20,955 nt of DNA from an archaeon (GTDB lineage Archaea; Iainarchaeota; Iainarchaeia; Iainarchaeales; 1-14-0-10-31-34), in the NCBI GenBank assembly GCA_043815885.1, contig JBDRIL010000032.1, forward strand, positions 1-20,955. The letters run 5' to 3'. This document shows, piece after piece, positions 1 to 3,000 of this stretch. How positions within the stretch are numbered: position 1 is the first letter of the stretch; each line of letters starts with the position of its first letter. Position numbers: made by a program.

Positions 1-3000
1 CTTTAATTCTTTTTTTCTTTTTAAATCAAATGAATAGAATTAAATATCTGTTTCTCTTTTTATTATTTGGATAGGTGAAAAATAATGCCCAGAGGCAGAA
101 ACAGTTTGGCAAAACGTAAATCACTTATTGAAAGCTCTCCTCCGGGGAAACTTCACAAAGTAACTACAAGCCTTCTTTCAGCCGAGAAACAGCGGCTAGT
201 GACAAAGATGAAGGATGCAAAGAGAAAAAGAAGGAGAAAAGCATTTTCACAATAGCACTTTTAATCATTCTAATTCTGTACTATTGTTCTTGGATTGTAC
301 CAAAAAGCCTTTATAAAGCAAATTCAGCAGTAGTATATGGAAAAAATCCCTTTTCCTAAAAAAAGTTTTTTTCACCTCCAAGGAAAAACTTTTGTGGGGA
401 GCAAGCCTGAAAGGCTTGTTCTTTCCCTCCTTTTTCTTTTAAAATCCCTTTGTTTCTAAAGTATTACTAATTCATTTAATTTGAAGGTGGTGTGGAGTGA
501 GTTATAGGACTAATGTAATGGGAGTAATAATCTTAATTCTCGTGCTGGGAATTGCTTTAGGGGTTGGACTGAGTTTAGTGAAGAGTGTAAAGTACAGTGA
601 TACAGAGGGATACTATTTTTTTGAAATGGATAAATCGCCGGATATAATGAACATTAATTTCTTTACAAGGATAGTTGACTTTGTTCTTGCATTGGCTTTG
701 GTTGTAATAGCGTTTCTTGCGTACAGGAGAATGCAGACAAAAAGAATGCTCTTAGTGTTTACTGCATTTGCATTCTTTGCCCTTAAATGGTATGTAAAGC
801 TACTGGATGTATTCCTTGCAAAAAAGAGTTTCTTTACTGACACAATAGGAAATGCATTCGAATTCGTTATACTCCTGCTGTTATTCGCTGCTTTGTTTTT
901 GAAGAAGTAATTCCTTTGGAGGGGAAAAATGGAAAAGGGAAAGAATGCATTAGAGTTAGATACACGAAACAGGATTTATAACGAGATAGTGGACTCTCCG
1001 GGACTGCATTTCAGGGAATTACAGAGAAGGACTACTCTTGCAATTGGTTCACTCCAATACCATCTTGATTACCTCCAAAAGAATAATTTATTGAAGGTAG
1101 AAAAGGAAGGCGCTTACAAGAGATACTTTGCATTAAAGATTCACAGGATAGAGGAAGAGGAAAGAATAATGCCCCTGCTTCGCCAGGAAAACATCAGGAA
1201 AATAATATTGTTTTTACTGGAGAAGGATAACTACAATCACTCTGCAATTGTTTCCTTCACTGGACTGTCTCCTTCAGTTGTTTCCTTTCACTTGGATAAA
1301 TGCATTGAAGCAGGAATAGTGAATAAAACAAAGAGAGGAAGAGAGAGTTATTTCTCGGTTATTAACCCGAATAAAGTAATTGAATTGCTTACCACTTACA
1401 GAAAGAGTTTTCTGGATAAATTGGTTGATAATTTCCTTGAAATCTGGGAGGGAGAAATGAAGAACTACTGATTTCAGGGGAAATGAGGTCTCCCGAAACC
1501 AAATAAAAGCAACTAAAAACAAATATTGGTGGGGTAAAGAAAATGAGTGAAGAAATAGAAGAAGTCTACAGGAAACAAATAGATGAATTCAACCTTTTAA
1601 TGAGAATTCAGGTTAACGAAGTAATTGCTTATTGAAAAATCAATGCAGTACAACAAAGTTCACCGGCAATCAACTCTCCCGAAAATATTTAAGGGCAGTT
1701 GAAAGCTCTTTTTTATATGAAGAAAAGATTGAATATTCCTAAAGAACAGCTTTACGATTTGTATTGGAATAAGAAATTGACTTTAGTTGAAATTGGAAAA
1801 GAGTTTGGTTGCACTGGAGAAAACATTATTTATTGGCTTAAAAAATTCAGGATTGAAAAAAGGCCAAACCAACGAAAAATTGATATACCGAAAGAAGTTT
1901 TGGAGAGACTTTATTGGAAAGAAAATTTAAAGACAACTGAAATCGCAAAAAGATATGGCATAAAGCATGGAAGGACAATCCTCAAGAAGATGAAGAAGAC
2001 AGGAGTTCCGTCAAAGACTCTTTCAGAAGCAAGAACTATAAAGATGAAGAAACCTTTTTCCGGGCCATTAGAGGAAAAAGCTTATTTTCTTGGTTTGAGA
2101 GCAGGAGACTTCTATGCAAAGAAAACACATGATTGCGTGAGAATTCAAACAACCACGACTCACCTTGCTCAAGTGGCATTATTAAAAAAATCTTTTGAAA
2201 ATTACGGGGAACTGGGAGTTTATTTAAGTAAAAACAAAAAAAGAGATACAGAGTGGTTTATCTATATTGATCTTCATAATTCATTTAATTTCTTAATTGA
2301 AAAACCGGAAGAAATTCCTGAAGAAATAATGAATGATGACAATGCTTTCTTTAATTTTCTTTCTGCTTACATGGATTGTGAAGGAAGCTGGGATGTAATT
2401 AAAAGCCATAAAAATAGTGTTAGATTTTGTTTTAGAATGAAAACAGGAGACAGTAAAATCCTTGGACAATTCAAGAAAAAATTGGAAGATAAAAATTACA
2501 ATCCAAGAATGTATTTTTATGCTAAAAAAGGTAGAAGAACACTTTATGGAACATATAAAAAAGACATTTATGATTTAACTCTGTACAGAAAAAAAGAAGT
2601 AATATCAATAATTAAAAAATTGCTTCCATTGAGTAAACACAGTGAAAAAATCAGAAGAATGAATTTTATTTTAATTAATCAGAATAGAAAGTGGAATGAA
2701 ATAGAAGGCGGATTGAATAAATTGAGAAAAGAAATTAAAATGGAATTATTGAAAAATCAGAGTAATACAAATATTGAAGCGAAAATTAATGCAACTATTG
2801 ACATGAGTTTTAATAAAATATTGATCGCAGGCCCGGAGGTATCCTTCCAGGGGTCACCCACAGTATCGCCAACAACTGCTGCCTTGTGAGCAAAGCTTCC
2901 TTTTCCTCCGAAATTTCCTTTTTCAATGTATTTCTTTGCGTTGTCCCATGCTCCTCCGGCGTTAGCCATCATTATTGCCATCATTACTCCAGAAGTTAAT

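Follow-up and report, generated by a model that had tools for sequence, protein, structure and literature searches.

The window (the whole stretch of DNA analyzed, 20,955 nt) is contig C32 of an archaeal bin of 1.16 Mb (36.8% G+C, 91.7% complete). It contains hppA and, running into the 3' end of that gene from the opposite strand, a predicted free-standing homing endonuclease gene that is preceded by a promoter box of the type found upstream of radA. The features of the locus are:

1473 to 1497, forward strand: another box, in the G-rich form typical of this genome and with no clear TATA (39.3 bits with the host-trained matrix, 12.4 bits for the core).
1543 to 1635, forward strand: ORF of 30 aa that follows the second box and has GGTGGGG as a ribosome-binding-like sequence, without a Pfam match; a remnant or a small gene.
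1659 to 1683, forward strand: radA-type promoter box TTCACCGGCAATCAACTCTCCCGAA, with its 17-nt core at 1659–1675 and its 3' end extending into the BRE position.
1686 to 1693, forward strand: TATA-like element TATTTAAG, assigned by its sequence, between the box and the ATG at 1717.
1717 to 2889, forward strand: predicted free-standing homing endonuclease gene (390 aa), its 3' end antisense over hppA.
2757 to 4772, reverse strand: hppA, H+-translocating pyrophosphatase (PF03030, E 4.7e-280), the putative target gene, overlapping the endonuclease gene by 133 nt.
2829 to 2870, reverse strand: putative cleavage target region in hppA, with a W codon at 2847–2849 instead of the usual F.

The box at 1659–1683 ends 33 nt upstream of the ATG at 1717, a geometry like that of most boxed genes, in which the ATG lies 32–37 nt downstream of the box. 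The spacing between the TATA-like element and this ATG suggests that the endonuclease transcript is leaderless. A pattern search for the box gave two matches in the window, compared to none in 100 shuffles, the second match being the site at 1473–1497. An Rfam scan of the window returned no match.

The endonuclease protein consists of two HTH repeats (about residues 9–95) followed by a double LAGLIDADG core, in which the two helices each end in an acidic residue: YFLGLRAGD (D131) and FLSAYMDCEG (E222). Both residues are invariant in 16 of 16 sequences; in a larger set of 85, E222 remains invariant and D131 is conserved in at least 90%. As an earlier survey of the genome had recorded, the protein itself has no LAGLIDADG Pfam match and its relatives match LAGLIDADG_3 (all five homologs tested pass the cut-off). 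All listed Foldseek matches to the predicted structure (pLDDT 92.1) are LAGLIDADG enzymes, the best at E 1.0e-8. Motif, fold and relatives together outweigh the profile miss, and on the strength of the model the product is a double-LAGLIDADG homing endonuclease, with cleavage as its predicted activity. The gene has its own promoter and ORF and lies outside any intron or intein, and hppA is uninterrupted.

In the phylum, hppA is the immediate neighbor of the four closest homologs, which come from three other families, and further homologs are located at pheS/T, metS, hmgA and amrS, in agreement with the survey; more distant homologs sit at gatB/D, elp3 and chaperonin genes. Close homologs (44–63%) are also found in Aenigmarchaeota, Woesearchaeota and Patescibacteria records, most of them adjoining hppA. 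The genomes compared are incomplete bins, and relatives are not independent of one another. Of 196 genomes, 91 have hppA; a full endonuclease adjoins it in five and is absent beside it in six genomes of the same family. What does the endonuclease cut? The 3' motif of hppA, GDTVGDPFKDT(S/A)GP, is the apparent target. Of 29 alleles linked to an endonuclease, 27 have it altered, compared to only 4 of 24 empty ones (after 11 duplicate loci and three empty loci with short flanks had been dropped). Within the order, where kin are not independent, the corresponding numbers are 6/6 and 4/24. A target that is altered in linked alleles and intact in most empty ones is the pattern of intronless homing known from phage enzymes. 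In the window the motif reads GDPWKD, and this W allele is likely to be an immune one.

The 25 nt upstream of radA, used as a seed, yield a sharp set of near matches. The core of the box can be written as YASYGGMAA-N4-CY, located 9–12 nt upstream of the TATA. A 25-nt matrix trained on eight host sites of this genome (one of which was offset by a single base) finds 19 genomic sites of at least 20 bits (eight of them the training sites, three of them identical contig-end copies at mcm), compared to none with each of 10 column-shuffled matrices. With this matrix, the endonuclease gene scores 30.7 bits, two TnpB genes 28.4 bits each, the LAGLIDADG genes on contigs C31 and C60 23.2 and 22.2 bits, respectively, and the N-terminal part of a TnpB gene at the end of contig C20 12.1 bits. 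This bears out the survey's finding that a radA-type box precedes the endonuclease gene, two other free-standing LAGLIDADG genes and three TnpB-type genes, and the boxes do begin 58–93 nt upstream of the starts. The TnpB proteins encoded on C38 and C11 have the TNB zinc-finger/RuvC domain (PF07282 and NF040570, both above cut-off), and their genes have no Rfam match at the gathering score; the domain match of the C20 piece is weak. The LAGLIDADG gene on C60 was considered as a possible intron-encoded gene, but it has no Rfam match, and its free-standing status stands; among 20 related loci, one is within 23S rRNA.

The 25-nt matrix is specific to this genome and too narrow for relatives, for which the 17-nt core was used instead. 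An independent model was obtained by de novo motif discovery in the radA upstream regions of 28 relatives, with this genome and one short locus excluded. One motif is present in all 28 regions, and in all 28 a TATA-like word follows the 17-nt core by 9–12 nt. Without BRE and TATA, this relatives-only core picks just 12 of the 1161 genes of the present genome at 12 bits or more: the endonuclease gene, which tops all 1161 with 19.6 bits, radA, two TnpB genes, the two other LAGLIDADG genes, recJ, XPD, herA, the rSAM-UDG-linked gene, a PIN gene and an AbrB-type antitoxin gene. Free-standing nucleases thus make up 5 of the 12. (The TnpB piece on C20, at 15.3 bits with the 17-nt core alone, has a longer spacer and was for that reason missed by the filter.) A further 20 radA regions include 11 that reach at least 12 bits; family f8 has a drifted form, and neither of the two genomes read from family f2 has a box at radA. 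In five relatives' genomes, a pattern search gave 81 match rows (overlapping duplicates included) versus 10 for the reversed control.

Host genes marked by the box in this genome are radA, herA, recJ, XPD, mcm and the rSAM-UDG-linked (repair radical-SAM) gene, and in relatives nurA, nreA, Hel308, XPD, recJ, Pif1, priL, mcm, an SSB-like gene, Hef and dinD. The box is equally common upstream of mobile-type genes that do not encode nucleases, including Bro-N, ORF6N, KilA-N, RhuM, YhcG, methyltransferase and toxin-antitoxin genes, so that its distribution need not reflect selection for nuclease timing in particular.

How general is the box at nuclease genes? In relatives, a gene was counted as boxed at 12 bits or more with a TATA, and position-matched windows served as controls. 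On this basis, 12 of 22 endonuclease homologs are boxed and four more show the core by eye (three of the 22 are inside the pheS-pheT operon, without a promoter of their own). TnpB genes, taken one per genome, are boxed in 13/27 cases versus 0/52 control windows, and single-motif LAGLIDADG genes in 10/26 versus 0/56, with about nine more weaker sites at the same offsets. At the single-motif genes the position of the box is fixed across genomes with differing neighbors, and two further LAGLIDADG types are also boxed. The boxed TnpB lineages are mutually only 21–29% identical. Additional TnpB rows without a visible tnpA reach 12 bits in 15 of 28 cases (core only, and seven rows repeat earlier TnpB loci); none of six tnpA-linked TnpB elements is boxed, two of the six hosts having a drifted box or none. 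About half of the nuclease genes examined are unboxed at 12 bits, including two of the four closest endonuclease homologs, those of G168 and G157, in which radA does have the box. The survey had also placed the box before LAGLIDADG and TnpB genes in G036, but in the genome so labelled here (the label may differ) none of the 21 box sites lies before a gene of either type. Taken together, independent models and controls support the box itself, its association with radA and with repair genes, and its occurrence upstream of free-standing nuclease genes of the LAGLIDADG and TnpB types.

At nuclease genes, the box is kept in the dialect of the host lineage. A small gene precedes radA in Woesearchaeota-type genomes, and in six loci the operon has CACTGGAC plus a TATA in front of it; the endonuclease genes of these genomes bear the same CACTGGAC dialect. 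A seventh boxed radA operon, from a separate (third) lineage, has AATAGCGGAA both before the operon and before its endonuclease gene. In all, seven of these nine radA operon loci are boxed (one of the others is too short, and one, from Aenigmarchaeota, has no box), and the evidence supports a box system that reaches beyond Iainarchaeota to other DPANN lineages. A relaxed dialect pattern is found in 10 of 28 hppA-clade promoters and 14 of 80 loci overall, versus 75 of 3245 background windows. In the endonuclease tree, two CACCGG members form the sister group of a CACTGGAC member (node support only 94/95). One relative, G159, has the G-rich form at radA and at four of its seven TnpB genes. In the present genome, the left half of the box reads CA(C/T)(C/A)GG, the order-wide form, in five of the six nuclease boxes but is G-rich at host genes, which are the unusual ones here. 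That the order-wide left half was kept suggests that the box arrived together with the elements.

Many promoters in the hppA clade contain a different element. The sequence (G/A)TCTTTC(A/T) is found directly before the TATA in 13 of 28 of these promoters, versus 102 of 2291 background windows, and corresponds, on the opposite strand, to a copy of the hppA codons for KDT(S)GP. A matrix made from 27 empty hppA alleles ranks 11 of the 13 mimic promoters above the best of 49 promoters from other clades; two more members of the hppA clade also pass. Box and mimic occur together in only one clade member, and the promoter of the window gene has no mimic, but the box instead. To judge by its resemblance to the target, the element is likely to be an operator for self-repression. 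Such target-like copies, located in the promoters of boxless homologs, also point to the hppA motif as the cleavage target.

The survey's interpretation, that selfish nucleases are timed to the repair state of the host, is thus only partly upheld. The box does link repair genes and free-standing nucleases. On the other hand, many non-nuclease mobile genes are boxed as well, much of the closest clade uses the target mimic, and CACCGG, which had been taken for a nuclease variant, is a common form at radA itself (13–14 of 28 relatives). Gene content and analogy are the basis for calling the box a "DNA-damage box" and for the idea of nucleases "timed to the repair state".

Why would a homing endonuclease be placed behind a host repair box? 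A reasonably probable explanation is that the endonuclease homes at hppA under this box and that homing is coupled to recombination repair. Where an hppA allele has no endonuclease gene beside it, the enzyme would cut the conserved 3' motif of that allele, and repair from an endonuclease-bearing chromosome would copy both the endonuclease gene and the immune hppA end. The box would most likely be bound by an activator upon DNA damage or build-up of single-stranded DNA; its fixed position just upstream of the BRE suggests an activator, as for the Sulfolobus DDRE and the Halobacterium motif. The nuclease would then be made alongside RadA, HerA/NurA and Hel308, presumably when a break is best repaired by recombination and least lethal. 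The box has been acquired on several occasions, in at least four lineages of LAGLIDADG genes and in several of TnpB, and many hppA-clade members may have found another solution, self-repression through a target-like operator beside the TATA. More broadly, DPANN archaea from Iainarchaeota to Woesearchaeota might possess an SOS-like regulon with its own regulator, on which unrelated break-making selfish genes (four or more LAGLIDADG lineages and several TnpB lineages that have no transposase) converge, re-tuning the box in each host, one clade having switched to target-mimic self-repression. This wider proposal is tentative, and we give it somewhat less than even credence; if it is true, homing would be a damage-triggered event on cellular chromosomes.

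The box might instead define a replication-stress or cell-cycle regulon (S-phase or host attachment); nuclease expression would then coincide with the presence of incoming DNA or of a second copy of the chromosome. Such a signal would also fit the absence of a box at mre11, rad50 and RPA of this genome while mcm is boxed here and in at least six relatives and priL in one, and the left half of the box resembles the mini-ORB TTCCAGTGGAACT. However, ligase, PolB, RFC and PCNA of this genome are likewise unboxed (all of these genes were identified by characteristic motifs), whereas dinD, nreA, XPD, the rSAM-UDG-linked gene and a PolB-like gene are boxed, a set like those of damage regulons. The boxed genes would seem to resemble a recombination-repair regulon more than a replisome regulon, and we regard a replication or cell-cycle signal as unlikely.

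Another possibility is passive promoter capture, in which foreign or toxic genes survive behind a promoter that is normally off, the benefit being silence rather than the timing of homing. The boxes at Bro-N, ORF6N, KilA-N, RhuM, YhcG, methyltransferase, PIN and antitoxin genes, the second, orphan box in the window, and the near mutual exclusion of box and self-operator, as for two ways of staying quiet, are all consistent with capture, as is a direct insertion in G215, where a LAGLIDADG_2 gene separates the box from the radA operon. The order-wide form of five of the six nuclease boxes in a genome with G-rich host boxes argues, however, that the box came with the element, and its position is fixed across genomes with different neighbors. 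Capture is rather improbable as the explanation, but it is compatible with homing under a repair box, and both can be true. The notion that the box merely extends the BRE in a class of promoters that are strong or leaderless, or is the end of a transposon, and has no regulatory role derives from its 3' end overlapping the BRE position followed by the TATA, but it is already largely refuted and barely credible, since the 17-nt core without BRE and TATA still picks 12 of 1161 genes, nearly all of them repair or mobile, and since radA and unrelated element types share the box while tnpA-linked elements are without it.

What binds the box? Its likeness to the Pyrococcus mini-ORB, as given in excerpts of PMC1904270, and to the 20-bp DDRE consensus of Sulfolobus, AATAGTTTCRGWDTACTCWS, with which the best radA site among 28 agrees, by eye, at 15 of 20 positions, suggests an Orc1/Cdc6 paralog, corresponding to Orc1-2 in Sulfolobus. 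Most genomes of the order have two Cdc6 paralogs. Half-sites are found in the cdc6-A leader at 11/34 loci versus 91/1071 genes, and family f2, which lacks the radA box in both genomes read, has a single cdc6. Against this, the essential ANTTTC hexamer is absent, the box core being ASYGGMA; both paralogs resemble Orc1-1 more than ORC2; and host-dialect half-sites occur at cdc6-A in only 2 of 22 further genomes and in none of 8 from outside the order, whose classical ORB-like repeats are unlike the box. (No box precedes cdc6-B, and in the present genome the region upstream of cdc6-A is off the contig.) An Orc1/Cdc6 regulator is thus mostly unsupported and doubtful. A sigma-70 scan, not relevant to archaea, was at chance level.

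The arrangement has several counterparts. Like Seg, Mob and F-CphI of T-even phages and cyanophages, free-standing endonucleases that carry out intronless homing, the endonuclease gene lies outside introns, fixed beside a conserved gene, with its own allele set apart by target changes and its promoter tied to a host programme, as far as these systems are described in the consulted parts of PMC2988022 and PMC13565253. Those enzymes are of the GIY-YIG, HNH or EndoVII type; here, a LAGLIDADG core is joined to HTH repeats, on cellular archaeal chromosomes, with overlap of the target's 3' end and a host repair box in the promoter. Autorepression of I-TevI similarly involves a target-like operator over its own promoter (PMC2988022, in part), as in 13 of 28 clade members here. 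I-TevI belongs to another nuclease family, however, the operator role is putative here, and the window gene has the host box in place of an operator.

The Sulfolobus Orc1-2/DDRE system also has a short element upstream of BRE/TATA in damage genes, with activator geometry and a partial likeness in the 20-bp consensus; the portion of PMC6061795 describing it makes no mention of mobile nucleases ("transposase", 0 matches). The Halobacterium UV-B motif TTTCACTTTCA lies upstream of the TATA of radA1 and of further genes induced by UV, and a near match precedes npa, an induced gene for a putative transposase (PMC2556686, excerpts). In the present system, unlike Sulfolobus, the ANTTTC core is absent, there is no clear Orc1-2 ortholog, and radA is the anchor gene; the Halobacterium motif differs in its core and, in the excerpts seen, involves one transposase, no homing or RNA-guided nucleases and no cross-genome pattern. 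In bacteria, LexA/SOS controls some mobile genes, such as the Tn5 transposase, colicins and some toxin-antitoxin pairs. These are likewise selfish genes wired into a host damage regulon, but the box shows no LexA-like palindrome across the order, its geometry suggests activation, and its targets include break-making nucleases that depend on host recombination to spread. Induction of ISDra2 does not occur via the tnpA promoter, according to passages of PMC2806898.

A full-text literature search, judged mostly from titles and starts of abstracts in a collection without most subscription papers, listed none that deals with the box, with a damage regulon in DPANN, or with homing endonuclease or tnpB genes preceded by damage boxes. 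Selfish elements wired to the host damage response are already known; the archaeal regulon described here is not. Little is known about damage-response control in archaea beyond Sulfolobales and haloarchaea, or about the regulation of TnpB and homing endonucleases. For DPANN archaea, the box supplies a defined operator together with a list of genes and the host dialects, and enables pull-down of the regulator. The large family of free-standing LAGLIDADG genes, with a putative target that can be read from immune alleles and promoter mimics, lets two modes of control over a toxic nuclease be compared in nature. The box also allows repair roles to be proposed for unnamed boxed genes. The PolB-like protein, for which the best match to a family B polymerase is only E 0.93 and which has no Pfam or NCBIfam match, is presumably PolB2. 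PolB2 is described as damage-induced in the part of PMC11791011 consulted. A 76-aa PC4/Pur-like boxed protein, without a match at E 0.001 in a fold search, has Pur-alpha as its best fold match (E 0.086).

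Among the 28 endonuclease promoters of the hppA clade, 13 carry a copy of the hppA target codons on the reverse strand, directly 5' of the TATA element (loci L190-L209). This copy and the host box are nearly mutually exclusive in these promoters. Judged from sequence, the copy would likely serve as an operator for self-repression.

The box is likewise unevenly spread among TnpB genes. None of the six that adjoin tnpA has it (L132, L134, L139, L141, L150, L376), whereas many copies without tnpA do, and the contrast holds even inside a single genome, G067. Single-motif LAGLIDADG genes (L312-L340; G000:C60:49843-50469 in the source genome) are boxed, encode about 210 aa and occur about once per genome, with variable neighbors and non-coding DNA 3' of the gene; they are possibly domesticated. 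Upstream of the C60 gene lies a second copy of what we take to be an inositol-1-phosphate synthase-like gene (G000:C60:50745-51245, L002), apparently broken. Another boxed LAGLIDADG gene (G000:C31, L003:1161-2301) is flanked by two tRNA genes, detected by Rfam and not by ARAGORN, each with a long insertion that is likely an intron. In G215, a LAGLIDADG_2 gene (L273:305-1120) sits in the gap separating the box from the small-gene-radA operon, and is an insertion there. Two further features lie in the window:

1473-1635: 30-aa ORF and a second strong box, which lacks a clear TATA
17737-20094: purD-like gene with GARS domains, interrupted by a LAGLIDADG domain (probable intein)

Genes with such inserted domains are numerous in G000, and boxed ORFs of 48-51 aa resembling the 30-aa ORF occur in G036 and G038.

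Two boxed genes encode proteins of no familiar type. One (L014:418-648; G000:C34:14217-14447) specifies 76 aa of no known family, with weak likeness to PC4/Pur; it lies 5' of Hel308 in G000 and 5' of radA in Woesearchaeota-type genomes, and is a candidate ssDNA-binding repair protein or sensor. The other (L012:445-1965, G000:C54), 470-510 aa and kept across the order, faintly resembles family B polymerases; a search for a family match yielded none, and the protein may be PolB2-like.

In several families, the leader of cdc6-A, an Orc1/Cdc6 paralog gene, contains an inverted repeat with box-like or ORB-like (origin recognition box) halves (L167, L172, L174, L177-L180, L186, L460, L461). Genomes outside the order have classical ORB-like repeats with G-strings 5' of cdc6 (L470-L477), which likely mark replication origins.

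Two records titled Chloroflexi (L201, L263) hold archaeal-type loci with the box in its Iainarchaeota dialect, so the records appear to be either mistitled or drawn from mixed bins. At a contig end in G000 (C24:61-85, L008), a box of 29.8 bits with a TATA points antisense into a truncated tyrosine-recombinase gene.
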